From a virus (Duplodnaviria; Caudoviricetes), in IMG/VR virus record IMGVR_UViG_3300017788_000018, positions 842 to 64,841 of that record: a stretch of DNA of 64,000 nucleotides; one strand, written 5' to 3'. The notes under the pieces were generated by a model. It made no database searches, was not told the origin of the DNA, and was given only the letters and a program-made list of their open reading frames with translations. Shown one piece after another: positions 22,991-62,623 of the stretch. Both the position numbers and the translations under genes were made by a program. Numbering within the stretch: position 1 is the stretch's first letter; each line of letters starts with the position of its first letter.

Positions 22991-24976
22991 ATGGCTCTCC
23001 GCATAAAAACCATAGAGTATGGGTTTACAAGTGTTACGGCCTCGTCGTTCACTCCACCGGACTATGCGGCGCATCCTGCCCAACTCATCAGTATCCCAGA
23101 AAGAACCAGCAGGACTTTCAAGTCGGTCTTTCTGTATCAGTATGCCCAACAGAATGTTGGTGCTGCTGCCACACCCACCAACTTGACAGCCTCTTTCAGG
23201 CTTTTCGGCGCAGATGCAACCACGCCAGGCGTACAGCGAACCACCGTAACGGCTTCCACCATGACCAACTCCGGTGAATCCCTGAGTTTTTCCTGGATAA
23301 CGGATCTCACTGCCTACTTCACAACCAACTTCTCTGCCTCCTATCAGAACGTTTCGGCTGCTTTGTCTGGTGGCATGAGCGTTAGTGCTTTCTCCAACTT
23401 GTCCTCGAAACTCATCATCACCTACCAATTTGAGGACAGCACGGTCACCGGAAGCAACACTCTCATCAAGACTGTGAGAATTCCTCAGGACGGTAGAAAC
23501 GGAAGCCTGACCACGGCTCTTACGCTGGTGGATGCCATTCCTCGTCTAGAGGGCTTCTGCCCTGAGGCCAATAAGACGTTCCGCAATATATTCTTCCAGA
23601 TCGAAGGTCAAACCGGTACCACGGCCGCTGTGGCTCCTGATCCTGCCCTGAGCATGAGTCTGGATACCGAGCCTGGGCAGCCAAACTTCGGTATAAACGA
23701 TACCCTGATCTCGGCACAGTATTACTACGGAATTTGGAACCGTAACAACATGGTCACCAGCTCCATTCACTGGCTGAGTGCCTCTGTGACTAACACAGCA
23801 ACCCCATATCCTTCCCTGACAACCGTTCTCTACGCAACCTATGAGTATACTCCAAGCGGCACTACCAGTCTTCTCAACTCCATAATGCTTCCTCTGCGGC
23901 CGGATGGCGGTATCATTGGCGGAAGTACAACCGCTCTCAAGACTCGTTTTGCAACCTCCATTCCAATTGTGGACAGAGGTCCAATTTTGTTGATGTCCTC
24001 TGCTGTACAGTTCCACTATTCGGACGGAGCGGCGCTCGCCGTTGACATTCGGAACGGAAGCCAGGCCTCCAGGGTTTACTCCATTCCTGCCACCGTAAGA
24101 GCCGGTGGCTGTGTGTCACAAAGAAGATTTGACGGTGGTGCCATCGGTGGCGCTGGTATGACCCTGAACAGGGGAATGAATACTTTGATAACTGATGTGT
24201 TCAGAACCGGCACTGCGGCGGGCAGCTTGGGCACCGGTCTCAATGGGGTGATCTTCCTGAACTACACCTCAAGCGTAAATGGTGCAGGCGCAGAGTCGCA
24301 TCCAAAAACCATCCTGACGCTTCTTCAGGAAACTCCGCCCACCGTATCTACTCCTCTGATCATCGTTTCTTCTTCTACCAATGCCAGGGGTTTGTCGATT
24401 CCTGAGTCCTACTACTACCTCTATTGCCATGGTGGCTATCTGCCAATTGTTTGGCGCAACACGGCCCATGCCGATGTGTTCCAGGAGTTGCACTGCTCGG
24501 TCGAGGCCAATGAGGCCGAATTGGGTGGCTGGAGAAGGCTTACGACCCAGACCCTGGTGGGTGACTCTGAGACTGGCGTGTATCCTATGTATTACTGTCC
24601 TCCAGAGGGAACCTGGAGGAATGCTCCAAACCTTCCCGATCTAAAGTCAGGTTCTCTTAACCCCACGCAGAACAGACAGTACAGGCTCACGGGCTTCCCG
24701 GCCTCTGCTGCAAGTCCTCAGGGTTGGCACGTTACAACCTACCACTCCAGACAATTTGCGAAGACTGGCTCTGTCTATCCAAATCCTGGTGCGGGTGTAA
24801 CCGTCAGAACCTATAGAGACGACACCGATGAGTTGATCAGCAGCTCCAGCACGAATGCAAACGGGCAATACTTTGTGACCTTCCATGATGACACAGTGGA
24901 TCTCTACTCAGAAACCCGGGTGTCTGCCGTGCTGGCCGGGCGTTCAAGTCTGTTCAGAGTTACGGCCTCGATCTAG
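22991..24976 (+). CDS. Large putative tail/virion protein
   Basis: 661 aa, T/S/G-rich; C-terminal GVTV...STNANGQY beta-sandwich-like end. Confidence 0.65.
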   Translation: MALRIKTIEYGFTSVTASSFTPPDYAAHPAQLISIPERTSRTFKSVFLYQYAQQNVGAAATPTNLTASFRLFGADATTPGVQRTTVTASTMTNSGESLSFSWITDLTAYFTTNFSASYQNVSAALSGGMSVSAFSNLSSKLIITYQFEDSTVTGSNTLIKTVRIPQDGRNGSLTTALTLVDAIPRLEGFCPEANKTFRNIFFQIEGQTGTTAAVAPDPALSMSLDTEPGQPNFGINDTLISAQYYYGIWNRNNMVTSSIHWLSASVTNTATPYPSLTTVLYATYEYTPSGTTSLLNSIMLPLRPDGGIIGGSTTALKTRFATSIPIVDRGPILLMSSAVQFHYSDGAALAVDIRNGSQASRVYSIPATVRAGGCVSQRRFDGGAIGGAGMTLNRGMNTLITDVFRTGTAAGSLGTGLNGVIFLNYTSSVNGAGAESHPKTILTLLQETPPTVSTPLIIVSSSTNARGLSIPESYYYLYCHGGYLPIVWRNTAHADVFQELHCSVEANEAELGGWRRLTTQTLVGDSETGVYPMYYCPPEGTWRNAPNLPDLKSGSLNPTQNRQYRLTGFPASAASPQGWHVTTYHSRQFAKTGSVYPNPGAGVTVRTYRDDTDELISSSSTNANGQYFVTFHDDTVDLYSETRVSAVLAGRSSLFRVTASI

Positions 24977-25944: not shown

Positions 25945-26865
25945 ATGTCAAAAAGAATTCTGGTGTTGTCTGGAGGCGGTAGTAAGGGAGCCTATCAAGT
26001 AGGCGCAATCCAGGCACTTCTAGAATCTGGTAGCACTTGGGATGGTGTCTATGGAATATCCGTAGGGGCTCTAAATGCAGGATGGCTAGCCATGTTTCCA
26101 AAGGAACTTCAGGCAGCCAGCTTTGGAGGCCTTAGGGAGATATGGGACAAGGTAAGGAAGACCGGGGACATTTACGAACCCTGGGCTCCCTTGGGCCTAA
26201 ACTACATCGCCTCTCTGTGGAAAGGTTCTCTCAACTCTGGCAAGCCACTGAGGAAACTGGTTGAGCAGTTTTTCGACATTGAGCAAGTGAGGAAAAGCGG
26301 AACCAAGTTGGTCGTGGGCTGCTGCTCCCTGAGCACCAGCCGCTATCACTCTTTCGACCAGGACAATGAATTCATCAAGGAGTATATCCTGGCCTCCTCA
26401 CACCTTCCAGTGATCTTCGAGCCTCTGGAGGTAGAGGGTCAGCTCTGGATTGATGGAGGGGTCCGCCATCAGATTCCCATCCTGGACGCTCTTAAGGACG
26501 ACCCGGATGAAATCGACGTTATCGTTACCCAGCCCATCACCAACTACGAAAACTCTGTCATCCCAAATGAGAAGATGAAAAGCGCCATTCAGGTAAGCCT
26601 TAGAGGGGCTAGCATCTTTTCGGATCAGGTCTACTTTGAGGATTGCATGAACGTTCTTCGAATCATCAAGGGCGAGGGAAAGAAGAACAACGTCAAGCGT
26701 GTGAGGTTTTTTGTTCCCTCGGCCATGCCGAACGAGGACAGCATGAACTTTGACGGTGACATGATTCAACGTGTCATTGCAATGGGCTATGAGGAAACAA
26801 AGAAGAAGCTTGAGGCCGAGTCTTCTGAGTCGGATGCCGTATACTCTCCTGACCTAGCGAAGTGA
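25945..26865 (+). CDS. Patatin-like phospholipase
   Basis: GGGSKG, GISVG (catalytic Ser), ASS, IDGG. Confidence 0.93.
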   Translation: MSKRILVLSGGGSKGAYQVGAIQALLESGSTWDGVYGISVGALNAGWLAMFPKELQAASFGGLREIWDKVRKTGDIYEPWAPLGLNYIASLWKGSLNSGKPLRKLVEQFFDIEQVRKSGTKLVVGCCSLSTSRYHSFDQDNEFIKEYILASSHLPVIFEPLEVEGQLWIDGGVRHQIPILDALKDDPDEIDVIVTQPITNYENSVIPNEKMKSAIQVSLRGASIFSDQVYFEDCMNVLRIIKGEGKKNNVKRVRFFVPSAMPNEDSMNFDGDMIQRVIAMGYEETKKKLEAESSESDAVYSPDLAK

Positions 26866-27524: not shown

Positions 27525-28241
27525 ATGAGTAACGACAAGAAACTAGACCTCAAACTGAATGACGACAACGAGTTGTCCTTCAAGCTTTCCATTGAGGGAA
27601 CCGTTAGCGACCCAGAGTTGGCCTCGCCTCGTTACCGGTTTACCATCACAGAGCTTGGTGAGGAAGAAAAGGGCTGGATCTTTCCTGCTAGGAAAGAGGC
27701 TGATGACATTGTTACGGTTTCCATCCCGGCTCCTCTCAAGTCTGGCTTCAAGGCAAAGCGTGTATACAAGGGTACCCTCGAGGTTATCCTTGGCCGTCTT
27801 TACTTCTCGCCTGCGGAATTGCAGTTGGAGTTCTCGACCCCATTGGAAATCCAGGCCGAGATTGCCTCTGCCACAGGCCTAAAGACTCAGGAGCCCAAAC
27901 CGCTTCTTTCAGAGGAAAGCCCCTCTGCCGAGCCCTCGGCTCTAAGGGAAAAAAATGACATGTACGATGAGGAGGAGATCCTTTCTGTTATTTCCGAGGA
28001 GAAGAAAGCTGCTCCACCACCAAGAAAAACCGCTCCTCCTCGAATTGTTCAACAGCCTTCGCCTGTCAAGAAGTCTGTTCCTGCTCAGAGGGTTCCTGTT
28101 CCTGGGGCGGTTGCCAAGAAGGCCCCAGCAGTAGCCAAGCCCACAACAAAAGAAAAACCAGCCCCTCTAAAGGAAACGGACGAGAAGAAGCTCTTTAAGG
28201 CAAAGCTCCTCAGCATGTTCAAGTCAGCCCTTAGTGACTGA
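27525..28241 (+). CDS. Hypothetical protein
   Basis: Beta-rich N-terminal half, Lys/Pro-rich tail. Confidence 0.7.
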   Translation: MSNDKKLDLKLNDDNELSFKLSIEGTVSDPELASPRYRFTITELGEEEKGWIFPARKEADDIVTVSIPAPLKSGFKAKRVYKGTLEVILGRLYFSPAELQLEFSTPLEIQAEIASATGLKTQEPKPLLSEESPSAEPSALREKNDMYDEEEILSVISEEKKAAPPPRKTAPPRIVQQPSPVKKSVPAQRVPVPGAVAKKAPAVAKPTTKEKPAPLKETDEKKLFKAKLLSMFKSALSD

Positions 28242-28276
28242 TACCGTTCCACGCCAGCGAGCTGATTCGGTTATTC

Positions 28277-28438
28277 TTATAGGCCTTGTGGCCAGCCTTG
28301 CATCGTGTGTGAAAAAATAGTGTTGTTGAACATCTCTGTGTCTAGAACCATGCCAGTCTGGCCTCTCAGACCCATGTAGTCGGTGTCAACACAAACACTG
28401 TCTCCAACCTGATATTTTCTATACTTGACGTAGTTCAT
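28277..28438 (-). CDS. Family B (KOW/SH3-like) copy 9, degenerate C-terminus
   Basis: YQVGDSV...GLRGQTGMVL; lacks the YxVLL-P motif in frame. Confidence 0.55.
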   Translation of the reverse strand: MNYVKYRKYQVGDSVCVDTDYMGLRGQTGMVLDTEMFNNTIFSHTMQGWPQGL

Positions 28439-28458
28439 GGTGAATTTACAGGTCTCTG

Positions 28459-28743
28459 TTATGGCACTTCCTCGTTCTTTGTGCATTCCACGGAGTCTTT
28501 AGGAGTCAACTCGGTGGCATAGAACGCCACAACCTCTGGTTGTTCTTTGTGTAGTGGAGAGACCAATACACTGTATATGTTGGGAATGTTGTCAACCCAT
28601 GGGAAATTCACCTCAGGGAATTCAACTTCCTCAAGAATGATTCCTGAACTTTCATTGTACTTGCCGAGATAGGTGTTTTCACACCTGACAATCACCAGAT
28701 CGCCAATCTTGAATTGGGTATTCTTCTTTTCTGTTTTCGTCAC
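28459..28743 (-). CDS. Family B copy 8
   Basis: FKIGDLV...GIIL...YSVLVS...EQP. Confidence 0.8.
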   Translation of the reverse strand: MTKTEKKNTQFKIGDLVIVRCENTYLGKYNESSGIILEEVEFPEVNFPWVDNIPNIYSVLVSPLHKEQPEVVAFYATELTPKDSVECTKNEEVP

Positions 28744-28961
28744 CTAACCAACTCCAGTTGCGGTTCAATGGCCCAATAGTACACGGGCTTATCGCTGTCT
28801 GTCCTCGACAAGAGGACGCAATACTCAATCATTGTACCAGCGTATGGCTCTTTCTCTACTTTCAGAATTACGGCTGTGTCCCCGGAAAAGGCCTTGCCGA
28901 ATCTATGGATTTCGTAGAAATACACAAGGTCACCGACCTTGAATTTAGGCTCGGGTCTCAC
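28740..28961 (-). CDS. Family B copy 7
   Basis: FKVGDLV...AVIL...YCVLLS...DKP; GGAGG SD. Confidence 0.8.
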   Translation of the reverse strand: MRPEPKFKVGDLVYFYEIHRFGKAFSGDTAVILKVEKEPYAGTMIEYCVLLSRTDSDKPVYYWAIEPQLELVR

Positions 28962-29160
28962 TGTCCCTCCTTAGAGCAGTTAGAAGGTAGCCCCAGAAAG
29001 CTCGAATGATGGGAGCTTCCTTGTCTGGGTGTGTCACCAACACAAAGTACAGAAAGCCATTGTAGTTGTCCTCAACCTCATCTACCACCACACCTATTGC
29101 GCTGGGATCTCGGTTGATAGACACAAGGTCACCGACCTTGAATTTGAATTCGGGGTTCAT
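28945..29160 (-). CDS. Family B copy 6
   Basis: FKVGDLV...GVVV...YFVLVTHPDKEAP. Confidence 0.8.
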   Translation of the reverse strand: MNPEFKFKVGDLVSINRDPSAIGVVVDEVEDNYNGFLYFVLVTHPDKEAPIIRAFWGYLLTALRRDSETRA

Positions 29161-29240
29161 TCTTCCCTCCCTGTATCAGGGACAAGATCCATAACATCCA
29201 CTTTGCGAGGGGCAGGAGTCTCTTTGGAAAAGAAAGTCAT
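29157..29240 (-). CDS. 27-aa mini-ORF, family B C-terminal remnant
   Basis: MTFFSKETPAPRKVDVMDLVPDTGREE; ATGA overlaps at both ends. Confidence 0.55.
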   Translation of the reverse strand: MTFFSKETPAPRKVDVMDLVPDTGREE

Positions 29241-29494
29241 GGTTTTGTGGTGGTTAGGGTGCGAATAAGGTCGGATCTAAAGAAGGTTTCGAGAAAAGGC
29301 ACCTCTTTGCTTGGCATAGTCAAGAGCACCTCACATTGCTCAAAGCGGAGAGTGCCATCCCTGGCGATTCCGTGGTCACGAACCACCATACCAACGGCCT
29401 CTCTGTAAACAGGAAAGAAGTCGCACAGTGATGGTGCAGGTCTTACGATATCGCCTATTTCTAGCCTGATAGGGTTCTTAGCCTGTGAGGTCAT
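29237..29494 (-). CDS. Family B copy 5
   Basis: LEIGDIV...GMVV...CEVLLTMPSKEVP. Confidence 0.8.
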   Translation of the reverse strand: MTSQAKNPIRLEIGDIVRPAPSLCDFFPVYREAVGMVVRDHGIARDGTLRFEQCEVLLTMPSKEVPFLETFFRSDLIRTLTTTKP

Positions 29495-29706
29495 GTTGGT
29501 ATCAGTATCAGATAGGTGGTGCTGAAATACTCAAGTCTAGGTGTTTCATAAAAGGGATGAGTGACAAGCACCGTGTAGTAGTATTCCTCCATTGCCATTG
29601 GATTGTTCCGTTCGATGCCTACAATCAAACCGGTAGAATTGTGATAATGAAATAGGGCTGTGTTGAAACTAACGAGGTCACCCACCCTGAAACCAGGACC
29701 TGTCAT
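29491..29706 (-). CDS. Family B copy 4
   Basis: FRVGDLV...GLIV...YTVLVTHPFYETP. Confidence 0.8.
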   Translation of the reverse strand: MTGPGFRVGDLVSFNTALFHYHNSTGLIVGIERNNPMAMEEYYYTVLVTHPFYETPRLEYFSTTYLILIPT

Positions 29707-29918
29707 TTCTTCACCAAAATGAGACATACGGCGGGGATGTTCATCATCACAGGTTCCTCTCTGTTAGGATAGGTGGTGAGAATGTCGCAGTGCGGGAGGC
29801 GATCGGCCTCGTGCACGGCCACGACAATAGCCTTTGCCCCTCGGAGGCCAGTGAAGTACATCATACTTGTCGGTTCAGCAAACTCCACAATGTCGCCAAC
29901 TTGAAAATTGTTCTTCAT
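29703..29918 (-). CDS. Family B copy 3
   Basis: FQVGDIV...AIVV...CDILTTYPNREEP. Confidence 0.8.
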   Translation of the reverse strand: MKNNFQVGDIVEFAEPTSMMYFTGLRGAKAIVVAVHEADRLPHCDILTTYPNREEPVMMNIPAVCLILVKK

Positions 29919-30199
29919 TCTGGCAACCATCGGCTAAGTTCAAATTCCCAATAGCTGTGCACAACAGGAGCTTCTAAGTCTGGAATGGACATTAGTATCC
30001 TATAGTTCCACCGCTGCCCTCGAAATTCGGCCCAATCTGATTTCCGACAAGTACAGGTAAGCACCATTCCCCTGACCCCTTCGTGTCTTAGGATGCTGCC
30101 CATGTTAAGGGCAGACTTAAAGTCTAGGCTCAGGATTACCATGTCCCCAACCTGGAACTTTTGCTTCTTCGGCGTAGAGGAGTTTGCATTTTCAGTCAT
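29915..30199 (-). CDS. Family B copy 2b
   Basis: FQVGDMV...GMVL...YRILMSIPDLEAP. Confidence 0.8.
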   Translation of the reverse strand: MTENANSSTPKKQKFQVGDMVILSLDFKSALNMGSILRHEGVRGMVLTCTCRKSDWAEFRGQRWNYRILMSIPDLEAPVVHSYWEFELSRWLPE

Positions 30200-30410
30200 T
30201 GTGCACCCGTCTAAGATTGCATTCTCTGAATATATGGAGACGGGGTTCCTCAGCCTTTTGCATAGAGAGGAGTACGGTATACCGTTGCGACTCCCCAATC
30301 CAAGGGTCGTAGATGACATCCACAATCATTCCCCTGGACCCAACGAAATCATGATGTGGGAGATTGCAAGGTTCCACAATGTCTCCGACCTTAAAGAATG
30401 GCACTGTCAT
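30192..30410 (-). CDS. Family B copy 2a
   Basis: FKVGDIV...GMIV...YTVLLSMQKAEEP. Confidence 0.8.
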   Translation of the reverse strand: MTVPFFKVGDIVEPCNLPHHDFVGSRGMIVDVIYDPWIGESQRYTVLLSMQKAEEPRLHIFRECNLRRVHND

Positions 30411-30616
30411 GGGTCTACCTTTGCCGGTACAAGCTCATCCTCGAAGAAAACTCTCAATGTCGGTGTTTCAAGGTGTGGCTTGGTCAGTAGCACCTTGTAA
30501 TACAAATCGTCTCGATCGTAGCCAACCACGATATCAACTGACCCTTCCAAGCCTCCGATAATTCTTTGAAGGCGAGCATCCGGTTCAACACGGTCTCCAA
30601 TATTGAATCGTCTCAT
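30407..30616 (-). CDS. Family B copy 1
   Basis: FNIGDRV...YKVLLTKPHLETP. Confidence 0.8.
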   Translation of the reverse strand: MRRFNIGDRVEPDARLQRIIGGLEGSVDIVVGYDRDDLYYKVLLTKPHLETPTLRVFFEDELVPAKVDP

Positions 30617-30671: not shown

Positions 30672-31049
30672 CTAGCCAACCCGAATGATCGGGCAAATCT
30701 TCACGGAATCCTCGTAGTGGGACTTTCGCTTCTTTGCCGGGAGGGTGTCCCTTGACTTGGAGTGGTAAGGATGCGTGCGGCGAATCATCGGGCTTTCCGG
30801 CTGCACCATGGAGATATAGACTTTGTTCTCTTCCATGAAGTTCTCGTACCAATCAAGCTCTCGATGGAGATTTTGGATTTCGTATGTGGTGTAGTCCACC
30901 CCGTTGAACACAACGGCTTCCTTTTTTGACAAGAGCCTTTCCAGCTTCTCTAGGGCATTCAGATAATCCGAACGGACCTTGTTGAGTCTCTCCTTGGTCA
31001 GGGGTAAGGAGGCACCCACAGTGATTTTAGCTTTGCTCATATGTGCCAT
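30672..31049 (-). CDS. Hypothetical protein
   Basis: GAGGGG SD before ATG 31049. Confidence 0.6.
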   Translation of the reverse strand: MAHMSKAKITVGASLPLTKERLNKVRSDYLNALEKLERLLSKKEAVVFNGVDYTTYEIQNLHRELDWYENFMEENKVYISMVQPESPMIRRTHPYHSKSRDTLPAKKRKSHYEDSVKICPIIRVG

Positions 31050-31072: not shown

Positions 31073-31104
31073 AAAATAAATAGGCGAGCCCACAGGGGCT
31101 CGCC
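31073..31104 (-). terminator. Intrinsic terminator
   Basis: GGCGAGCCC/GGGCTCGCC stem with TATTTATTTT on the minus strand. Confidence 0.7.
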
Positions 31105-31113: not shown

Positions 31114-31935
31114 TCACAGAGTCCGCTCAAAAATTGTTGCTGGATCTACTTCTGAGCTTAGGCAGTATCGGCTGACCTTACCGTTAACGAGGAAGTCCAC
31201 ACGATAAGTCTTTCGTGCACTTAGGACCGTATATGTAACGAATTCCTTTAGCTGCTGCGCTCGGGCGGAGAGTACGGGGGGAGGTCCATGGAAACGAATG
31301 GTACCATTGGGCTCAAACCCAAATCCAAGCTCCTGGAGTGTGGTTCCGTTAGATCCAAATTTGAGCTTTTCGAAAATCTTGTTCTTCTCACGCAGACGCG
31401 TCTCCATGAAATTCCGAATTTCTGCTGTTCGATTCGAAATCTTCCGACCTCCGGCGTCTTCCGTGAGCCCAAGATACAGAAGTTGGTCGTATACTACTCG
31501 ATAAAACCCGGACGTGGGTCGAATAACCTTGGCTGCGGGCGACCAGTATAGGTTGCTTGACAAGTTCGCAGCTAGCTCTGGGAGCTTCACTACCGGCAAA
31601 TTCCAGATTGGATTGCTCAGAAGAAGCATGTTATTGAAGTCATGGAGTTGACTGGCCTCTGCTCCTCCACGTCGAAGGGTGGCTTCAGACGAATTGACTT
31701 TGTTGCAGAATCGATAGACCTTTCCCTTTTGCAGGAAAAATCTTCCTTTCGTGCTGTTAATGCGCTTTTCTGACTTGGGCCATGGAATGGCCTGGGCCTC
31801 ACGGGCCCATTCCATGAAGAGTTTCGTGAGCCCTCGGCGCACAGCCGTCGCTCGTGCCCCATTTTGCACAAACTCGTTGCTCATTGTTCTCTTTGCGAAC
31901 GAGTGTTGCTTCGGTCGGTTCTTTTTGGATCTCAT
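31114..31935 (-). CDS. Hypothetical protein
   Basis: 273 aa; C-terminal VDFLVNGKV resembles other small beta families here. Confidence 0.7.
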   Translation of the reverse strand: MRSKKNRPKQHSFAKRTMSNEFVQNGARATAVRRGLTKLFMEWAREAQAIPWPKSEKRINSTKGRFFLQKGKVYRFCNKVNSSEATLRRGGAEASQLHDFNNMLLLSNPIWNLPVVKLPELAANLSSNLYWSPAAKVIRPTSGFYRVVYDQLLYLGLTEDAGGRKISNRTAEIRNFMETRLREKNKIFEKLKFGSNGTTLQELGFGFEPNGTIRFHGPPPVLSARAQQLKEFVTYTVLSARKTYRVDFLVNGKVSRYCLSSEVDPATIFERTL

Positions 31936-34112: not shown

Positions 34113-34703
34113 TCAGTGCTTTCTATGGTTGATTTCTGGGGCATAGGACTTGAGGCTCGGGTCACCTTGGGCAATAACCTCAGGAAGGTTGCTTGGATAC
34201 GAGAATGCGGACCAGCCAATCCTACCTTCTCTTAGAAACTGAAAGTTCCAAACTGTCGTGGCTTCCTGCACCCACTCATTGCGATTCCGCTTCTTAACAT
34301 AATTGATTTCCGAGGACACAAAGGAGCGGAGGACAATCATTTTCTCGTCAGCCTCCACTCTGATTTCCTTGCGGTTTCCGAACATCGTAAATACGCTCCC
34401 GGCGCTATCTCTGTAGAGATTCCACGGCGGCCATCGTGAGTGGAAATCCAGAGCAATTCCTCTGTGCTTAAAAGACTCTAGAGGCTCCAACTCATGCATG
34501 AGGCAGTATTGAGAGCCGGGCACGCACACCAGAGAACCAGGAGGATATGTGTAGTCCCCCGTTTCAAGCAGATTCGACTGCAAGGCCTCGATGTAGATTG
34601 TTTCAAGGGTCTGGAGAAACCTCGGATATTCCTCGGGGAGGTTTTTCCGAAGGTCATAGATTTCCCTGAGAGCATGCTGCAACTCTGTGGATTCTGTGGA
34701 CAT
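34113..34703 (-). CDS. Paralog family C copy 2
   Basis: NLPEEYPRFL...PPGSLV...WPPW...REGRIGW...LPEVIAQGDP. Confidence 0.75.
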   Translation of the reverse strand: MSTESTELQHALREIYDLRKNLPEEYPRFLQTLETIYIEALQSNLLETGDYTYPPGSLVCVPGSQYCLMHELEPLESFKHRGIALDFHSRWPPWNLYRDSAGSVFTMFGNRKEIRVEADEKMIVLRSFVSSEINYVKKRNRNEWVQEATTVWNFQFLREGRIGWSAFSYPSNLPEVIAQGDPSLKSYAPEINHRKH

Positions 34704-34776
34704 ATTTTCCGTGGACACGTTGGCGCTCACAACGAAATGGGTGGGAGAAAGGTAGGATTGACTGGCAACAACAGAT

Positions 34777-35334
34777 TTACCGGTATGGATTGAAGTTGGG
34801 ATCGCCCAAGGTAACAATTTCAGGCATGTCCGTGTCGTCGGCCCAAATCCAACCGAGGGAGCCATTCCTCATAACCTGAATTTCGATGCCGTGGTCGTCC
34901 TCGGGCATAATCAGAGAGCGAGTAACAAGCAGGGGCTCAGAGGAGCAGTCAACATCTTCACTATATTGGCAGAGATATTTCATGTGAAGGTTGAAATAGC
35001 TAATACCCTCAGATATGGGCCACAGAGGCCACTTTGCAAAGAAAGCCGAAATTTGGGCACCGAACTGGTCCTCGGGCACAGTTAGAAATCCAATTTCCCG
35101 TATCCATGGTTTCCGTAGATTATCAGGCGACAGCGGCCACCGGATCATGGAACCAGGCGGGATCTGAGGACAGAGAGACACGACTCCCGTCTCTAGATCG
35201 AGGAGATTGAGAGTCTCGGCACGATCGAGAAAGCGGGGAATGTCCTCGGGGAAATTTTCTGAGGCCTGCTGGGCTTCCCAGATAATTTGTTCCCTGTATT
35301 TTGGATTGAATGGCGAGCGGTCGGAGGGGTGCAT
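34777..35334 (-). CDS. Paralog family C copy 1
   Basis: NFPEDIPRFL...PPGSMI...WPLW...RNGSLGW...MPEIVTLGDP. Confidence 0.75.
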   Translation of the reverse strand: MHPSDRSPFNPKYREQIIWEAQQASENFPEDIPRFLDRAETLNLLDLETGVVSLCPQIPPGSMIRWPLSPDNLRKPWIREIGFLTVPEDQFGAQISAFFAKWPLWPISEGISYFNLHMKYLCQYSEDVDCSSEPLLVTRSLIMPEDDHGIEIQVMRNGSLGWIWADDTDMPEIVTLGDPNFNPYR

Positions 35335-35370
35335 GGTCGAACCGTGTCCTTTGTTGCTCTCTATGGGAAT

Positions 35371-35413
35371 CAGAAAAGACCAAGGCTCCCTCCGTGGCGG
35401 GAGGGAGCCTTGG
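35371..35413 (-). terminator. Intrinsic terminator
   Basis: 14-bp stem CCAAGGCTCCCTCC/GGAGGGAGCCTTGG followed by TCTTTTCT. Confidence 0.85.
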
Positions 35414-35419
35414 GAGCTT

Positions 35420-36211
35420 TTACTCCTCAAACTTGTTGTAAGAGGCGTACTCCTCAAGTGCATCCACCTGAACGAAACGCAAGGTCTCACGCTCCGAGAG
35501 AACCTCATCCTTCTCAAGGAGAACAGCGGTCAGCTTGCCGCCGAACACGCAGCCGGTGTCGATTCCGTGGCAGGCACCACGGGAGTTGGAACCGTTCCAG
35601 GTCTTAGGCTCACCACGACCCACAACGTTGTGTCCGAAGAGAACGTCCTCGGGACCATCGTAGACTTCTGCCCAATAGACAGACTGAGGTGGCTGGCGGA
35701 AACCCGGCATAAGGAGCGGAAGCATCATATGCTTCGACTCGCTGATGAACCGGACCATGGTGAGGATCTCCAGGGGCAGAGTCTCAGGGTCACGGCCGGG
35801 AGTCATGCCAGCATGAACGATGATGGCATTGTTCTCAGGAAGGCGGATAAGCCCCGGAAGCTCCGAAAGCCAGTTAAGGTCATCCTGACTCAAATTCTGA
35901 ATCGTGTACTCCTGATCCAGATCGGGCTTCATGGGATTGCGGTAATTCTTGTCCCTACGGGCACGAGCAAGGTGACGAGCCCTGCGAAGGAGCTTGCCCT
36001 CATGGTTTCCTAGGACGCACTCACCATGCTCCCGAACGAAACGAACCACGCCCGCACTGTCGGGGCCTCGATCCACAAGGTCACCGGCCACGATGAGACG
36101 GTCTGCACCCGGATCGAATTGCACCTTATCGAGCAAGGCCTTAAGCTCCGTAAGGCAGCCATGCACATCGCCCACGACGATCGTTCGCTTGAATTGCGTA
36201 TTTTTGTCCAT
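35420..36211 (-). CDS. PPP/ApaH-like metallophosphoesterase
   Basis: GDVHG, GDLVDRG, GNHE, VHAG, FGH, IDTGC. Confidence 0.92.
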   Translation of the reverse strand: MDKNTQFKRTIVVGDVHGCLTELKALLDKVQFDPGADRLIVAGDLVDRGPDSAGVVRFVREHGECVLGNHEGKLLRRARHLARARRDKNYRNPMKPDLDQEYTIQNLSQDDLNWLSELPGLIRLPENNAIIVHAGMTPGRDPETLPLEILTMVRFISESKHMMLPLLMPGFRQPPQSVYWAEVYDGPEDVLFGHNVVGRGEPKTWNGSNSRGACHGIDTGCVFGGKLTAVLLEKDEVLSERETLRFVQVDALEEYASYNKFEE

Positions 36212-36216
36212 AACCT

Positions 36217-36261
36217 ATAATAGCACGTTTTGCACAGCCTTTAAAGGCTTAAATTGCAAGG
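36217..36261 (-). promoter_or_regulatory. sigma70-type early promoter (likely leaderless transcript)
   Basis: CCTTGCA-ATTTAAGCC-TTTAAA-N17-TATTAT; ATG 5 nt downstream. Confidence 0.8.
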
Positions 36262-36301
36262 AAAACGTCGCTATAAATAGGGCTGGACCTGCGAATCTAG
36301 C

Positions 36302-37174
36302 TCAGAATTCCAGGAACGAATCGACCTTAGGGAGCCCGTAGTGGGCTTCTCCGGTGATGCAAGTCAGGTTGGTTTTTCCTGCTGTGAAGTGAGCCTTGCC
36401 GTGCGAGTGACCGCAGAATACCTCAAAGCTTACCTGAGGATTGCCATCGGCCAAACGAAGAATGGCGTCGCCCATGAGCTTGCTCGAAAAGAACGGAAGC
36501 CAGTCCCCGTCACTCTGCTTTCCATTGTAGAGGGAATTCTGAGGGAACGGAGGAATGTGGGTTCCGATGACGATCTTGGTGTGACCCGCCACAATAGCGG
36601 CTCGGGCACCATCCTCGACATGCTTTGCCCCTTCCTTGGCAAGCTCCTGGAGCTTCTTGTGCAACTTTCCGTTCAACTCGTGCTTAACCGAGTACACGTT
36701 GAGGCTATGAAGGCTTTTCAACTCTCTGATGATCAGAAAGTCGTTCATCATCAGCCTCGACTTACGGATATCCGAGTAAAGGGCATCGTACCAACCATCA
36801 TGCCCGACCAGGGCTGTGGTGGTATTGAGACTCACGAATGGGAGGTTGTTAAGGTGCCTAAGATTGGGCATGGCAGTCTCAAGATCCTTGAGCTGCTGGC
36901 GAACATCCTGAATCCCGTTGTTGTAGTAGTCGTGATTGCCGAGAATGTACCAAATCGGAAAGTCTGGACCAAGGCCTTTTTGGAGGGCCACAAGATGATC
37001 CCTGATGAATACACCACTCGATATGTCGCCGGTCAGAAGAAGCCCCTGAGCACCCTGCCTCTGAATGCTGTTAACAAATCCAGTCAGGAGCCAGGGCTCG
37101 TTGATCGTGTGATCAAAGTGAGTGTCCGTGGCCCAGGCAAGTAGGAAAGGAGTGGGTGTGGGGTTGGCAGTCAT
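36302..37174 (-). CDS. Icc/CpdA-like metallophosphoesterase
   Basis: TDTH, TGDI, GNHD, THIPP, GHSH. Confidence 0.9.
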   Translation of the reverse strand: MTANPTPTPFLLAWATDTHFDHTINEPWLLTGFVNSIQRQGAQGLLLTGDISSGVFIRDHLVALQKGLGPDFPIWYILGNHDYYNNGIQDVRQQLKDLETAMPNLRHLNNLPFVSLNTTTALVGHDGWYDALYSDIRKSRLMMNDFLIIRELKSLHSLNVYSVKHELNGKLHKKLQELAKEGAKHVEDGARAAIVAGHTKIVIGTHIPPFPQNSLYNGKQSDGDWLPFFSSKLMGDAILRLADGNPQVSFEVFCGHSHGKAHFTAGKTNLTCITGEAHYGLPKVDSFLEF

Positions 37175-37191
37175 GTCTCTAGCCTAACACA

Positions 37192-37575
37192 TTACCAACC
37201 GAATTTAAAGCTTTTCTCTCGATTGAGATTTCTTCGGAGATTTTCATGGAGCATGTAGCGCCACGTCGGTTGGGGAAGGGTGGGAAGCTGGCAAATGAGA
37301 TTGCCCTGAGCCATGCCCTCAAGATAGGCCTTGGCGGCTTGGTTTGCTCTGTCCAACAGAATGTCAGAAACATTCTGGTTTACAACCATGGAGTTGATCA
37401 GAATTCCAAGTTGGACCTGCACGACCACAGCATCCTCAGGATATTCCCATTCCTCTGCATTCAGAGAGACTTCAATGGCTTGTTGACGAAGCGTCGTGAA
37501 GTCCTCGTGAAGTATATGAGTTGGAATAGGAGTCACGGGAGCAAAATAGGTCTCAACGCTAGGAATGGCGATCAC
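37192..37575 (-). CDS. Hypothetical protein
   Basis: Coupled ORF (GTGA overlap). Confidence 0.6.
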   Translation of the reverse strand: MIAIPSVETYFAPVTPIPTHILHEDFTTLRQQAIEVSLNAEEWEYPEDAVVVQVQLGILINSMVVNQNVSDILLDRANQAAKAYLEGMAQGNLICQLPTLPQPTWRYMLHENLRRNLNREKSFKFGW

Positions 37576-37793
37576 TTTTCAGTCTCCTTGAGCTTTTCCT
37601 CAAGTTCAGATACCAGAATCTTGAGACGTGAGGAGTCAAGAAAGGCAGACATTCCCAGATAGAAATACGCAATTTCCATGGAATCAAAAGCCCATCCCGC
37701 ACCCAAGACGATGAGAGCAGTCACGAGGCCAGGGAAATTATACTTGGCGTAGTTCTTGAGAGTTTGCATAACGGTGCTTGAGGTCGTATTCAT
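37572..37793 (-). CDS. Small membrane protein
   Basis: Hydrophobic segments followed by a coiled-coil end. Confidence 0.65.
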   Translation of the reverse strand: MNTTSSTVMQTLKNYAKYNFPGLVTALIVLGAGWAFDSMEIAYFYLGMSAFLDSSRLKILVSELEEKLKETEK

Positions 37794-37813
37794 GGTTTAC
37801 AGGCCCCTCTTGA

Positions 37814-38539
37814 TCAGTACGTTGATGTTCTCATCGGTTGCTTCAACTCATTTTGAAGCTCTGCGAGTTTCTCTTGGGCCTCATTACGTTCCCTCACAAC
37901 CCTTTCCACGGCTGCCAGGGTCGAGTCGTCGGTTTCCACTTCCCCTACAACCAAAGAGATTTTGGCGATGTACTCTCTAAGGGCATCGGATCTTTCTCGA
38001 AAGATTGCGAGATCGGCTTTGGTGGTTTCGAGGGCCTTCTCTGCCTTGGTGGCACGCTCAATCAGCGTACCAACGTTATTCTGGGCCGTTGAGAAGTCTG
38101 TTCCCTCAAAACCAGCCTCATTGAGAGCGGCAACCAGAGGATAGACATGCTCAGACCAGTTAACTCTCTGAGACCCGATAATGCTGTTCCGAATGCCGTT
38201 GATCTTGTTGAGGGCCCTGAGAGCCATGTCGGTTCTCTCAAGTTCTTTCTCTGCCTTCTCGGCTCGGGCACGTTCAATCCCAATTTGGGTTTTGCAAGCC
38301 TCAAGCAATTGATTTGCATCTTCCTGAATGCGGATTTCTTCAGCGGTGGCAGGCTTGGCTGCAATTCCACTGGAATCAGTCTCTCCAGGAAATGGAGGCA
38401 TGGATTCGGTATACTGTCCTTCCATAATGGAATGGAGTACACCCGCCCATTGCTCTGCATTTCGGGGACGGAACATAAGCTGACCGTCTCGCTCGTTCAA
38501 ACGCTCCGCAAGAGCCAGGAGCCATTCATCTTTCGTCAT
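37814..38539 (-). CDS. Coiled-coil phage protein
   Basis: GGAG SD; IRNSIIGSQRVNWSEHVYPLVAAL core flanked by RAEKAE repeats. Confidence 0.7.
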   Translation of the reverse strand: MTKDEWLLALAERLNERDGQLMFRPRNAEQWAGVLHSIMEGQYTESMPPFPGETDSSGIAAKPATAEEIRIQEDANQLLEACKTQIGIERARAEKAEKELERTDMALRALNKINGIRNSIIGSQRVNWSEHVYPLVAALNEAGFEGTDFSTAQNNVGTLIERATKAEKALETTKADLAIFRERSDALREYIAKISLVVGEVETDDSTLAAVERVVRERNEAQEKLAELQNELKQPMRTSTY

Positions 38540-38541
38540 GT

Positions 38542-38820
38542 TTACTCTCCATCCTTGGCGGGGCAGTAAAGGTCGCAGGTGTTGATGATCGTGTTCATGG
38601 CGAACCAAGCCCTGGTATCAATGCAGTCCAAAATCTGCCCAGCATACCATTCCACCTGTTGCTCGGGCGTCATCGACTTGTTGCCTAGATGGCAACCTGC
38701 GACCAGGCCACGCTCGGCAAGGGCATGCCTAAGGGTTTCAGCGACCATCATGGCCTCCGTAATGTGCCCATTGTCAAGATCCTGGATTGCCTTGCGAACG
38801 ATTGTGCGTAGGGAAGTCAT
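38542..38820 (-). CDS. Hypothetical protein
   Basis: GAGGA SD. Confidence 0.65.
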   Translation of the reverse strand: MTSLRTIVRKAIQDLDNGHITEAMMVAETLRHALAERGLVAGCHLGNKSMTPEQQVEWYAGQILDCIDTRAWFAMNTIINTCDLYCPAKDGE

Positions 38821-38833
38821 GTTTCCTCGTTTA

Positions 38834-39106
38834 TCAAATTGTTTCCGACCAAGTGTCCTCTCGGGAGCGAAACTCGGCCTCATCGAGGACTTCCTCGATT
38901 ACATGCCAATCCCCGCCACGCCAAGTCCAGCCATTCGTCTTCCAATGTTCCCTTACGGACTGCTCCCTAGGAGCCACAGCAGCCTCGGCAGAGGCACGGT
39001 CTGCGAACAGATAGGCCTCGGGATGCTTGCCTGTCTCTGTGTTGCCAGAGGCGTCAGCCCAATAGAGAATGGTCTGATCGGCAGGTGCTAGAACGGCGTA
39101 TTTCAT
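38834..39106 (-). CDS. Hypothetical protein
   Basis: Tightly packed in a minus-strand run. Confidence 0.65.
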   Translation of the reverse strand: MKYAVLAPADQTILYWADASGNTETGKHPEAYLFADRASAEAAVAPREQSVREHWKTNGWTWRGGDWHVIEEVLDEAEFRSREDTWSETI

Positions 39107-39123
39107 ATGTTTCTCAACAGTCC

Positions 39124-39564
39124 TTAGATGGACTTGGTTTCCCTGTCTGTTTCGATTTCCGAAACAGTTGACGCGGCAGCCTCTAGAGCAGCATCCAGCT
39201 TTGCCACAAGGTCACGCCATCCACCACCAGAGCTGTTTGGCGCATGATCAGGCTGAATTTCATCGGGGTCCAAGCCCCATCGCACATGCTGTGCGGCCTC
39301 ACGGAGGGCAGCTAGCTTTGCCTCGGCCTCCTCAGCCCGCTCCCTCAACTCGTTCATTTCGAGTTGGGTGGGAGACTGCGTTAGGATATGATCAATCTCT
39401 CGGTTCCACCACTTGTAACGCTGGATCACTCCAACGCCCACAGGCCAGAAGTCACCGCAGGCAGAGGGACCAACATGCTGTCCGCCCTTTGGCTTCTCAA
39501 AGGAACGAATAGAAGCCTCAAACTGGCCCCTGAGGGCCTCAAGTACGTCTCTCTCGGTCTTCAT
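39124..39564 (-). CDS. Hypothetical protein
   Basis: ERAEEAEAKL coiled coil. Confidence 0.65.
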   Translation of the reverse strand: MKTERDVLEALRGQFEASIRSFEKPKGGQHVGPSACGDFWPVGVGVIQRYKWWNREIDHILTQSPTQLEMNELRERAEEAEAKLAALREAAQHVRWGLDPDEIQPDHAPNSSGGGWRDLVAKLDAALEAAASTVSEIETDRETKSI

Positions 39565-39567
39565 GGC

Positions 39568-39651
39568 TTAGGACCTTCTCCAAAAAATCCACCAAATCGC
39601 AATTACGGCCAATGCCGAAATAGCGTTATTTACAACATCAGGCCAAGTCAT
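39568..39651 (-). CDS. 27-aa single-TM peptide
   Basis: GGAGGT SD; MTWPDVVNNAISALAVIAIWWIFWRRS. Confidence 0.55.
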   Translation of the reverse strand: MTWPDVVNNAISALAVIAIWWIFWRRS

Positions 39652-39652
39652 A

Positions 39653-40072
39653 TCACTTACCTCCACTAGTGGGCCAGAAATAGGTCTGACCCGGACTTTC
39701 ATTCCAATTCCATCGTGAATACCAATCAGGGAGCTTTTCAAGCAAGCGTGAGCGGTGAGAGGAATGAACCCTCTCGTCCCCAATCCAATGGGGTCTGGTT
39801 CCGTCGTGATTTGTCAATGCCTGAAACTTAGGCAAAAGGGTATCCTTGTATCCCCTGGAGCGCCATTCCTCACAAATGGCAGTTCCGTACTCAGCCAGGG
39901 CAGGAACATGACCTTGCCACATTTTTGTGGCAGGGTGGTTCTTCCATCCATAACCGGGCACCGTGAGAGCCTGGATAATCTGCCAGGTCTCTACTCGCTG
40001 CTTGCCAAGCCGCATTCTATCAAGCCACTTTGCACTTTGGGCAAAGTCAGGAGAAGGCAAAAAAGTCTGCAT
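39653..40072 (-). CDS. Pyrimidine-dimer DNA glycosylase-like (MSMEG_6728-type) protein
   Basis: MQTFLP, RLGKQRVE, HPATKMW, HSSHRSRLLEK, YFWP. Confidence 0.85.
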   Translation of the reverse strand: MQTFLPSPDFAQSAKWLDRMRLGKQRVETWQIIQALTVPGYGWKNHPATKMWQGHVPALAEYGTAICEEWRSRGYKDTLLPKFQALTNHDGTRPHWIGDERVHSSHRSRLLEKLPDWYSRWNWNESPGQTYFWPTSGGK

Positions 40073-40080
40073 GGTTACCT

Positions 40081-40437
40081 CTAGTCGTCCAGGGACGGGT
40101 CATAGTGCCAAGGGGTTAGAAACTCTTTGTCAATGCAGAAAAACTTGAGATCCAGGAGAATGATTGCCTTGCGACCAATCATTTTTATCACAAGCCCGAC
40201 CTCATCACGTTGCAACACTCGGAAATAGAGCTTTGTGAAACTGGTGTCGAGCGGTAGTTTGTCAATACCTTGCAATTCCTCTTTGGTGATTTCGAAAATG
40301 AAGGGACCGAGCGCCTCAGGGAGATAAGGTTTCCATCGTGGCCTTACCAGCATACCGATTTCGATTATCGGATGGTGTCTCTCAAGAAACGAGGCAGTTT
40401 CGATTTCGTCCATGTGCACCCACCCAAGGGGATGCAC
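40081..40437 (-). CDS. Hypothetical small beta protein
   Basis: IEIGMLV...VGLVI. Confidence 0.6.
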   Translation of the reverse strand: MHPLGWVHMDEIETASFLERHHPIIEIGMLVRPRWKPYLPEALGPFIFEITKEELQGIDKLPLDTSFTKLYFRVLQRDEVGLVIKMIGRKAIILLDLKFFCIDKEFLTPWHYDPSLDD

Positions 40438-40455
40438 ATAAATATCCTGCTCTGG

Positions 40456-40782
40456 TCAGTCCCTAGACGGGAAGAGGCTCGGGTTGTCGAAGTCTAGATA
40501 GAGAATGTTCTCGGCTTCCCAATCCTTCTGGATATCCAACTGGAGCTTAGGAGTGGGGCTCACTCCATCAATCTTGACAACCAAGGGAAACGTCCACTCG
40601 GGAACCATAGGTTCCTGCTGGTGCTTCTGTCCGAGCACCCGACCCAAAATCTGCTTTGTCTTTTCGTATCCTGCCGGGGTACGAGGGTCGATGTGATTGA
40701 TCATCAGATCCATTACGACCTGCTCTGTCAACCAATTGAGCATCGAGTTAATCCTACGCCGGTAGGTTCGAATCTTGTTCAA
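40456..40782 (-). CDS. Hypothetical protein
   Basis: Coupled ORF. Confidence 0.6.
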   Translation of the reverse strand: MNKIRTYRRRINSMLNWLTEQVVMDLMINHIDPRTPAGYEKTKQILGRVLGQKHQQEPMVPEWTFPLVVKIDGVSPTPKLQLDIQKDWEAENILYLDFDNPSLFPSRD

Positions 40783-41240
40783 GTTGCCTCGCCTTCTGAG
40801 TTTTCCTCAGGATTCGGGGGCGTGAGGGCACCAGGAATGGGCACGACACCAGGCATAGCCAGCACCTTCACGAAGGTACCGCCGAAAAGGTTGTCACCAG
40901 CCTGGTGAATCTTCTGGTAGTTGTAGTGAACCACGATTCCATCATAGAGGAAACGCAGATAGACCCAGCTACTCCAGTGATCGTAGGCCGGACCAAGATA
41001 GGTCACCATGCTCTGACCCTCAATGGTGATGTACTCGGTCTCGGCGGTCTCCTTGGTGGAGGGAACCGGGTCACGCTCGATCATCGTCTGTGCGTCCACG
41101 GTATGAACGACCTTGACGATATCGCCCACGTTGAGGCTGTGCTTAGCGGCCATCTCAAACTTCACGTCCAGAAGGCGACGATTGATAATCGCCTTAGGGG
41201 CCGGGCCTGCCCGTCTCTCTCTACGTTCCTCTAGAGCCAT
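40779..41240 (-). CDS. Hypothetical SH3-like early protein
   Basis: LNVGDIV...TYLG...RFLYDG; GAGGA SD after promoter. Confidence 0.7.
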   Translation of the reverse strand: MALEERRERRAGPAPKAIINRRLLDVKFEMAAKHSLNVGDIVKVVHTVDAQTMIERDPVPSTKETAETEYITIEGQSMVTYLGPAYDHWSSWVYLRFLYDGIVVHYNYQKIHQAGDNLFGGTFVKVLAMPGVVPIPGALTPPNPEENSEGEAT

Positions 41241-41280
41241 ACGATTTCCTCACAAAGGGGTTGTGCGTTGTGTCTATTCC

Positions 41281-41318
41281 ATTATAGACCGTTTTCGTTC
41301 TGGTTTAAACCATTTATT
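41281..41318 (-). promoter_or_regulatory. sigma70-type early promoter
   Basis: AATAAATGG-TTTAAA-N17-TATAAT. Confidence 0.8.
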
Positions 41319-41743
41319 CTGGGCTCAATTTTTACTAGATAGGCCTCAGGCGTCAACAGAGCGAAGGTATGATAGACTTTTCCATCGAACAAAATTCTGA
41401 TCTCAAGAGCTCCACTGATCTTTTCTACGGAGGAAAGGAATACCACGACGAACCCTCCATGGAGGGTTCGTGAGGCGGATCTTGGGCGGTATCTAGGGCT
41501 GGAGGGGTAGTAGATGGCATACAGGCCTTCATGAATTGGTCGAAATTCCTGCAAGTCATTGGAAGCTAGTTCTGACACGGGAGCCCAAAGCAAGGGTTCC
41601 TTAACGGCTGCCATGTCACCTGCCTGCAACTTTACATATGGCCTCTGAACCCAGAGCGGCCTTGCGGTCTCTGGGTTGGAGTCGTCATATGGCAGAAGAT
41701 CATCAAACGATGTTTTTTTCTTCGTCATCGGGAATTTCTTCAT
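41282..41743 (-). CDS. Hypothetical SH3-like protein
   Basis: LQAGDMA...VFLS...RILFDGKV. Confidence 0.6.
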   Translation of the reverse strand: MKKFPMTKKKTSFDDLLPYDDSNPETARPLWVQRPYVKLQAGDMAAVKEPLLWAPVSELASNDLQEFRPIHEGLYAIYYPSSPRYRPRSASRTLHGGFVVVFLSSVEKISGALEIRILFDGKVYHTFALLTPEAYLVKIEPRINGLNQNENGL

Positions 41744-45336: not shown

Positions 45337-45429
45337 AACCGGTATCCGATATCCAGGAGTTGAACCTGGCACGCTAAGCTTATAAGGCTCGGCAGCCCAA
45401 CCGGGGTCTCATATCGGGCTTTCTTTCTA

Positions 45430-62350: not shown

Positions 62351-62623
62351 ATGAACATTCCGGCCCATATACCTGAACCCACAAAGCCTCATCGATTCCA
62401 GATTGGTGATCGGGTGACGTTCCATGCGCAGGTGGGCAGCGTTGGAATGATCGTCGGGTCCAAGTGGGGCTCCACGCACCTTAAGATTGATGGCCAAATT
62501 CGGCTAACGCACTATTCGATCTACAATGTACTTTTGACATACCTAGATGAGGAAATTCCCTGTCTCAGGAATTGCCTGGAGTACGAGATTGACCTCTTTC
62601 CGTTCAAGTCAGAGAAGACATGA
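62351..62623 (+). CDS. Family B dispersed copy
   Basis: FQIGDRV...GSVGMIV...YNVLLTYLDEEIP. Confidence 0.75.
   Translation: MNIPAHIPEPTKPHRFQIGDRVTFHAQVGSVGMIVGSKWGSTHLKIDGQIRLTHYSIYNVLLTYLDEEIPCLRNCLEYEIDLFPFKSEKT

Follow-up and report, generated by a model that had tools for sequence, protein, structure and literature searches.

A coupled array of ten small genes

The window analysed here is a stretch of 64,000 nucleotides (nt) that makes up nearly the whole of the IMG/VR virus record IMGVR_UViG_3300017788_000018 (64,841 bases). On its minus strand it carries an array of ten open reading frames (ORFs) of 53–94 amino acids (aa), running from position 30616 down to 28277, and a related eleventh gene lies at 62351-62623 on the plus strand; the array copies are numbered c1 to c10 in the order of transcription, and the dispersed one is c11 (Table 1). 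The ten ORFs with their coordinates, their chaining at most junctions by start/stop overlaps, the shared FxVGDxV...PxxExP motif and the further member on the other strand had all been put forward from the DNA letters alone, and each was reproduced in our analysis. The array is best read as an old expansion of a single family of small proteins with a predicted SH3-like barrel, seemingly confined to one phage lineage, and its products are probably protein-binding modules of differing specificity.

Neighbouring genes are tightly joined. ATGA overlaps link c1/c2, c3/c4, c4/c5 and c5/c6 when c4 and c5 are read from their internal ATGs (29918 and 29706), a GTGA overlap links c8/c9, and c2/c3 and c7/c8 overlap by 8 and 17 nt, respectively; both the 71-aa and the 78-aa form of c5 are present in public gene calls. 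The remaining junctions are gaps of 20 nt (c9/c10) and 76 nt (c6/c7), the latter filled by a 27-codon ORF whose role may be just to pass ribosomes on. As a relic of a lost copy this ORF was rejected, scoring 0.8 bits against the family profile where its shuffles reach 4.5. Good Shine-Dalgarno sequences precede c7 and c8 and several other copies have none, a distribution that fits re-initiation at the overlaps, and the overlapping start and stop codons lead us to expect coupled translation from one transcript. Reading the array as one long protein, made by frameshifting or under another genetic code, was discarded: successive ORFs lie in different frames, each with its own ATG or GTG, the junctions have no slippery heptamer in common, and long ORFs elsewhere read normally in genetic code table 11.

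The putative transcription unit begins with a gene for a basic 125-aa protein, whose homologue search returned itself only and which matches no Pfam or NCBIfam family. A terminator-like hairpin just past the stop of a 273-aa gene (31114-31935) may mark the start of the unit formed by the 125-aa gene and the ten copies; since terminator-like sites between 27000 and 34000 are no more numerous than in shuffles (10 vs 7.8 ± 3.0), the hairpin is weak evidence for that start. The stop of a convergent gene lies 35 nt beyond the end of the array. Its last member, c10, breaks off at the conserved Pro position (the PxxExP equivalent), and strands 4 and 5 of the predicted fold are absent from it.

Table 1. 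Features of the array and other genes of the window (aa, amino acids; pI, isoelectric point; E, expect value against the family profile; pLDDT, predicted local distance difference test).
Feature	Coordinates	Strand	Description
c1	30407..30616	-	69 aa, pI 5.0; AlphaFold2 pLDDT 89.4, five strands
c2	30192..30410	-	72 aa, pI 6.0; ATGA overlap with c1
c3	29915..30199	-	94 aa counted from internal ATG, pI 7.8; longest first loop
c4	29703..29918	-	71 aa from ATG overlapping c3 stop (75 aa from 29930)
c5	29491..29706	-	71 aa from ATG overlapping c4 stop (78 aa from 29727)
c6	29237..29494	-	85 aa, pI 6.6
27-codon ORF	29157..29240	-	bridges c6/c7, ATGA at each end
c7	28945..29160	-	71 aa, pI 4.9; GGAGGG before ATG; carries 25-nt patch
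c8	28740..28961	-	73 aa, GTG start after AGGAGG; carries 25-nt patch
c9	28459..28743	-	94 aa, GTG start in GTGA overlap, pI 4.6; longest second loop
c10	28277..28438	-	53 aa, truncated; weakest profile match (E 1.6e-14)
c11 (dispersed)	62351..62623	+	90 aa; E 3.4e-22; nearest c1 (41% identity)
125-aa basic protein	30672..31049	-	pI 9.4; first gene of putative unit
Terminator-like hairpin	31083..31104	-	9 pairs, 8 G-C, T-rich tail
ClpP-like protease	16485-17138	-	
M23 peptidase	14782-15573	-	
Protein with Fe/Mn superoxide dismutase C-terminal domain	1815-2777	+	
NAD-kinase-like protein	44395-45372	-	
PTH2-type peptidyl-tRNA hydrolase	45680-46027	-	

The eleven copies form one family outside current libraries

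The family was defined by an alignment of all eleven translations (A1) and the profile built from it. In A1, neither the G, D and V within FxVGDxV nor the final P of PxxExP ever varies; a T/S occurs in 11 of 11 copies, an L in 10 of 11 and an E in 9 of 11. Run against the 64,841-base record, the profile found the 11 places (E 3.5e-26 to 1.6e-14) and none else at E ≤ 1, and in a six-frame scan the next-best ORF beyond the eleven reached only E 0.39, which places the family far beyond chance. BLASTP by itself connects nine of the eleven copies. A1 holds no conserved stretch of 7–10 columns and was therefore unusable for locus scans.

Library searches placed the copies in no established family. 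Against Pfam, none of the 11 reached the family thresholds, none matched KOW at E ≤ 1 and none (0/11) matched the Mind bomb SH3 repeat SH3_15 (PF18346); against PHROGs there was no meaningful match for the 11 (best E 0.072), the best Pfam/PHROG values being E 0.017-0.45. One copy of 11 matched the AriB model of PADLOC at E 0.034, which we took as chance; PADLOC, whose models describe defence proteins and not their inhibitors, gave no other match, and of four copies scanned against NCBIfam none matched. Judged by sequence comparison, this is a family new to the Pfam, PHROG, PADLOC and NCBIfam libraries.

A common small barrel with two variable loops

AlphaFold2 (AF2) models of c1 and c9, for which the eleven paralogues served as the alignment, contain five strands in identical order (pLDDT 89.4 and 80.6; predicted template modelling score (pTM) 0.74 and 0.69, respectively). 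The c1 model has a short helix in the first loop, and the second loop of c9 is long and less confident. When A1 is mapped on these models, conservation falls on all five strands and on the loop joining strands 3 and 4, which carries [ST]xPxxExP in every full copy, while variation falls on the loop after strand 1 (A1 columns 32-50), the loop after strand 2 (columns 58-79) and both tails. The fixed scaffold with variable loops that had been proposed is thus borne out by both models, the variation sitting in the loops after strands 1 and 2.

Structural searches gave the same picture. Foldseek against the PDB ranked an Spt5 KOW domain first for c1 (E 7.8e-3, template modelling (TM) score 0.64), then NusG, HspQ (rank 3), eL21 and YorP, with NdhS/Ssl0352 and PWWP domains also in the top list (TM 0.59-0.71); the c9 list comprised eL21, nitrile hydratase beta, NusG, NdhS, YorP and PWWP. 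Superposition of c1 with VIA-align yielded Z 8.7 for NdhS (root-mean-square deviation (rmsd) 2.0, 60 aligned), 8.4 for DSIF KOW6-7, 8.0 for both HspQ and NusG, 7.6 for YorP and 7.3 for R67 dihydrofolate reductase, and an ESM Atlas model of c7 (pTM 0.66) had DUF2158/YodC, YccV/HspQ and SNF2 N-terminal domains as neighbours (TM 0.68-0.74). The two AF2 models, whose folds are related to each other, thereby fall in the class of SH3-like small β-barrels (KOW, Tudor, PWWP, NdhS, HspQ), whose hallmark is an antiparallel, strongly bent barrel of five strands and about 60 residues. The KOW/SH3-like call of the original prediction is upheld at the level of fold, c1 and c9 matching KOW, SH3-like and Tudor barrels. 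On these models, the match is to a very common class of small barrel and not to one family.

Barrels of the KOW, Sm-like, Cren7/Sul7 and PWWP kinds often bind nucleic acids, and the presence of NusG/Spt5 KOW, eL21 and a PWWP domain bound to single-stranded DNA among the top structural matches would suit a set of nucleic-acid-binding regulators. All copies are neutral to acidic, with pI values of 4.6-7.8 and net charges between -7.4 and +0.7, which argues against such a role, as does the lack of a KOW match in Pfam. KOW family members are joined to an NGN domain or stand in a ribosomal-protein context, with a basic surface for contact with RNA or ribosomes; as stand-alone proteins of 53–94 aa with these pI values, the copies do not fit that description. 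We consider nucleic-acid binding very doubtful.

The expansion is old and the copies are probably maintained

The copies have diverged deeply. Pairwise identity is 14-41% at the protein level and 35-49% at the DNA level, so that synonymous sites are saturated among the paralogues. In a maximum-likelihood tree, 0/8 inner branches are well supported, and the end branches have a median length of 2.4 changes per column. No order of duplication could be obtained, since the tree gives none and adjacent copies are no closer than distant ones; by arithmetic on the identity matrix, adjacent copies average about 28% identity vs about 27% for all pairs.

One short exact repeat stands out from this background. 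A 25-nt segment is identical at 28922-28946 and 29121-29145, within a 54-nt stretch that is 78% identical. The identity that had been noticed is real, and it lies in the seventh and eighth copies in transcription order, not in the sixth and seventh. Eight codons of the motif that is conserved best make up the patch. Where residues are identical, the codon is shared about 0.36 of the time (average over pairs), and by our estimate about 1-2% of equally large data sets would show a run of eight same codons by chance. A small conversion is plausible, and at most a micro-conversion. The patch also holds a perfect palindrome with a 7-bp stem, CAAGGTC-ACC-GACCTTG on the plus strand (28925-28941 and 29124-29140), which encodes part of KVGDLV a few codons past each start and is absent from the other copies.

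Population data agree with an old array. Eight public runs hold the stretch, labelled freshwater or freshwater sediment, none of them on record as RNA. Contigs from four other metagenome runs are at least 99% alike, with no indel and no joint over the array, and in one run (X2) two contigs span the whole array with 0 differences; with such short, low-depth contigs, rare variants could have escaped notice. The single nucleotide polymorphism (SNP) across the four runs, 28630 C>T, is synonymous. Among public proteins there is a c7 variant that differs in a single residue, a D in place of G ahead of strand 2 (P0006), and a c11 variant with three residues changed (P0016), from which we conclude that a slightly different strain exists. 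The marks of a virus gene accordion, near-identical tandem copies and copy number that varies between populations, are not what we found. By these measures the expansion is old and not accordion-like, and the recent duplication and accordion-style growth that had been proposed for it find no support.

Such divergence raises the question of whether most copies are neutral leftovers of an ancient amplification, largely without present function. The lack of relatives elsewhere and the truncation of c10 would suit this explanation, as would base composition: the ten array genes have 47.3% G+C vs 51.8% window-wide, forming the window minimum (28001-30000), and G+C at third codon positions is 52.9% vs 60.3% in eleven large genes. 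Yet despite saturation, 10 of the 11 copies (all but c10) keep their frame, core motif and coupled starts, which would be unexpected without selection and points to purifying selection on each copy, and the SNP in the other samples is synonymous. Each copy is therefore inferred to be kept by selection, and we regard neutral leftovers as unlikely.

The array is absent from distant relatives

To place the array among related phages, we used a neighbouring 661-aa protein (22991-24976, +) with 75 homologues, the least similar at 26% identity. Aligning 26 of these homologues gave access to 77 viral and 69 metagenome loci, each taken together with flanks of up to 10 kilobases (kb) per side. No family member was present in the 146 loci (best E 0.07 and 0.38; window as positive control), nor in 10 whole relative records, of which seven measure 161-219 kb and are at least 90% complete; all these relatives are distant, their marker proteins being 23-43% identical. 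The closest (43%) shares the gene order as far as the homologue of 27525-28241, beyond which its genes are unrelated. With 11 copies in 64.8 kb and no match in any of the distant relatives searched (0/146 loci, 0/10 records), the expansion appears, by sequence search, specific to this lineage. The neighbouring genes 31114-31935 and 25945-26865 found no viral relatives.

The marker itself matched nothing in Pfam, PHROG or NCBIfam, and a PDB profile search of its family was also empty. It has 29 invariant columns in 26 sequences and occurs in at least 75 metagenomic proteins and in 146 loci, and we take it to be a likely structural protein in a phage group that is large and still unexplored.

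Sequence relatives are fused-repeat proteins

Sensitive searches led almost entirely back to the window. A profile search of 5.8 billion proteins returned the window's own proteins or one-residue variants and two weak two-repeat proteins only; clusters of ten copies hold 1-2 sequences each, on at most 6 contigs. Searches of viral and metagenome contigs with c9 found nothing, nor did a search of viral contigs with the long relative P0045, and tblastn of c1 against 50,697 phage records touched four of them (best E 0.4). Against the PDB, the A1 profile matched the MIB1 SH3 repeats at E 6.6e-4 by the first-strand motif alone (17-20 residues) and SPT5 KOW at E 0.01 over about 34 positions.

The widest search, with the A1 profile against 1.84 billion representatives of 15 billion proteins, found 348 proteins at E ≤ 1e-3. 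The best 150 of these comprise 11 from the window itself and 139 long proteins (209-2985 aa) in which the profile matches 2-17 stretches, for the most part across its positions 5-42; no small stand-alone relative is among them. Of 21 long relatives scanned, 16 are NHase_beta_C-like, several match SH3_15 (P0010 at E 7.1e-71), SH3_12 or KOW, and two have no match, while all 12 scanned against PHROGs match small phage families of unknown function. Single repeat units of P0045, P0055, P0058 and P0091 match the whole domain, and hhalign of A1 against 53 units cut from 12 long relatives gave 97.2% probability (E 3.5e-11, A1 positions 9-78), in a partly circular test, as the units were chosen among the profile's own matches. 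Going by these profile matches, the FKVGD-type SH3-like repeat domains include this family as a divergent branch of stand-alone proteins.

This relationship suggests that the ten proteins could be subunits of one hetero-oligomer made in fixed proportions, the split-gene equivalent of a fused-repeat protein. Every non-window protein among the best 150 of the 348 carries several matched stretches, whole-domain matches of single units and the hhalign result point the same way, and the array genes are chained by ATGA/GTGA overlaps. Chains of start/stop overlaps are usual for subunits made in equal amounts, and small β-barrels often form rings, the seven Sm paralogues being an example. Internal repeats in long proteins, however, do not show that separate copies bind each other; c11 lies 32 kb off on the other strand, and one array copy is truncated. 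We regard such an assembly as the main alternative to the reading favoured below, with a minor share of the probability.

A further reading draws on P0017, in which the repeats are joined to a glucosaminidase domain: the copies might be cell-wall-binding or lysis-accessory SH3 modules, like the SH3b domains of endolysins or the stand-alone SH3 proteins of T1-like lysis cassettes. The window does encode an M23 peptidase, and PMC13164509 places a stand-alone SH3 gene in Drexlerviridae lysis modules. Against this, no hydrophobic N-terminal export stretch was seen when the translations of the copies were read by eye, no holin, endolysin or spanin was recognised beside the array, and the M23 gene is 13 kb off in another block. 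A cell-wall role is highly improbable.

Least probable of all the explanations considered is that the copies are substrates or carriers of a peptide-ligase system, as the small SH3-like proteins of Citrobacter phage CVT22 might be. Seven small CVT22 genes match a general repeat-unit profile at E < 0.01, and three CVT22 proteins stand in the top 50 BFVD matches of c1. The C-termini of the window copies, however, have nothing in common, and none of 109 window ORFs scanned against Pfam or PHROGs is an ATP-grasp, amidoligase or amidotransferase.

Possible function of the array

We favour the reading, with a probability of about 0.5, that the array is an old, lineage-specific expansion whose products, made from one transcript, act in the cytoplasm as protein-binding modules that differ in specificity and share one contact. 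The ten copies would be co-translated from that transcript by coupled translation. The two variable loops would be the equivalents of the RT and n-Src loops and give each copy its own specificity, and the conserved loop between strands 3 and 4, with its [ST]xPxxExP motif, would form one contact common to all. The RT and n-Src loops of classical SH3 domains border the groove in which the ligand sits and determine specificity, whereas the loop between strands 3 and 4 lies at the opposite end of the barrel. The correspondence of the variable loops to the RT and n-Src positions, together with the probable upkeep of each copy by selection, makes protein-binding modules the most likely function of the copies. 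Bound partners could be host takeover targets, defence proteins or phage proteins. That the copies might act as anti-defence binders, part of the repertoire against host or defence targets first suggested for them, has a precedent in Nip of phage phi3T, an SH3-like phage protein described in PMC11984713 as binding a defence protein.

Several points weigh against this interpretation. The variable loops could reflect relaxed constraint and not diversified specificity; c10 is truncated, so some decay occurs; and the tight gene coupling would suit the parts of a single complex no less than independent binders. As to structure, the matches found are generic: neither c1 nor c9 has a Foldseek match reaching E ≤ 1e-3, and 513 of 992 chains superpose on c1 with Z ≥ 5 in VIA-align. 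A shared fold is silent on function. The circular element in the hhalign test counts on the same side.

The protein-binding reading has a variant, quite unlikely in our view, in which the copies form an adaptor panel: the conserved loop would dock all of them on one machine, and the variable loops would each capture a different host protein. By analogy with HspQ and Lon, candidate machines are the phage ClpP-like enzyme or a host AAA+ protease. If so, about ten host proteins would be disposed of or retargeted through one scaffold.

Small stand-alone SH3-like proteins are among the commonest unexplained phage genes, with many PHROGs and BFVD entries, and the array supplies ten natural versions of such a scaffold within a single operon, a comparison set for binding questions. 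Should the copies be diversified binders or adaptors, they would illustrate the way in which repertoires against hosts arise in very large phages and could provide compact binding scaffolds; should they be subunits of one assembly, they would represent a repeat protein encoded as separate coupled genes. Function aside, the present value lies in having a new family from an uncultured phage soundly described.

Gene setting of the window

The source is an uncultured freshwater phage whose genome probably spans several hundred kb. This size follows from the CheckV completeness of the 64,841-base record (14%) and of its two closest relatives found (21% at 89 kb and 12% at 44 kb). Besides the genes in Table 1, recognisable ones encode a DnaE-like polymerase fragment, a sigma-70-like factor, an ATPase, a patatin-like lipase, two metallophosphoesterases, a DenV-like glycosylase, an MT-A70 methylase and tRNA-Ile(TAT); the majority of the remaining ORFs have no library match.

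Two further paralogue families were observed. Directly after c11, three chained ORFs of 118, 121 and 115 aa (62620-63682, +) show 34-35% identity to the first and have the common motifs P(K/Q)EGE(I/L)W, DR, W(V/F)L and D(H/V)F, with no Pfam match. Another trio (10486-11028, 10961-11515 and 12074-12697, +; about 180-207 aa) is linked by BLASTP at E ≤ 1e-3 and also has no Pfam match.

Comparison with known systems

Stand-alone SH3-like mini-proteins of phages and expansions of small domains in jumbo phages are already known. Among the former, YorP of the Bacillus subtilis prophage SPbeta (PDB 2heq) has the same five-strand barrel (Z 7.6, rmsd 2.7, 64 aligned vs c1), as do small uncharacterised phage proteins of 55-100 aa in BFVD (TM 0.6-0.74), and PHROGs 10201, 17722, 22674 and 7571, matched by the remote relatives, have an FKVGD-type first strand. 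No counterpart to the [ST]xPxxExP loop or to the ten-gene coupled array was found in these small phage proteins, and a full-text literature search, with supplements outside its scope, turned up no description of a translationally coupled array of such SH3-like copies. What is new is the sequence family outside all libraries, its loop motif and the ten-gene translationally coupled array of deeply diverged copies. The sole sequence relatives, the fused-repeat proteins (SH3_15, NHase_beta_C-like, SH3_12), have 2-17 units compared with 10 in the array, and their units share one polypeptide, whereas the window encodes every unit by a separate gene that has start and stop codons to itself.

HspQ (YccV family, PDB 5ycq), the specificity-enhancing factor of Lon, is alike in size and fold (Z 8.0, rmsd 2.2, 59 aligned); no sequence similarity to it was detected, and its score is tied with those of many unrelated barrels. 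In phage CVT22 (KP774835), at about 34552-42614 on the minus strand, at least 12 genes of 67-81 aa end in SLENE (one in SLINE, one in SLENK) and are interspersed with ATP-grasp, amidoligase and amidotransferase genes, an arrangement suggestive of small SH3-like proteins that have one C-terminal tail in common and are encoded next to peptide-ligase enzymes. PMC11984713 describes Nip as a 279-aa protein with two SH3-like domains and an HU-like dimerisation domain and reports a Nip-SpbK-YonE complex; the likeness to the window family lies in SH3-like phage domains used in a counter-defence protein and is one of description only.

Two viral expansions invite comparison with the array. The poxvirus K3L accordions multiply a small host-interaction gene in tandem, and are recent, near-identical and variable in copy number within populations; the window copies, in contrast, are 14-41% identical, and their array is the same in four other samples. 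Bacillus phage G, according to PMC7824862, carries about 35 copies of a zinc ribbon as a lineage-specific expansion. Phage G differs in the fold concerned, but it is likewise a very large phage that has multiplied one small domain many times, and its relatives are without the expansion.

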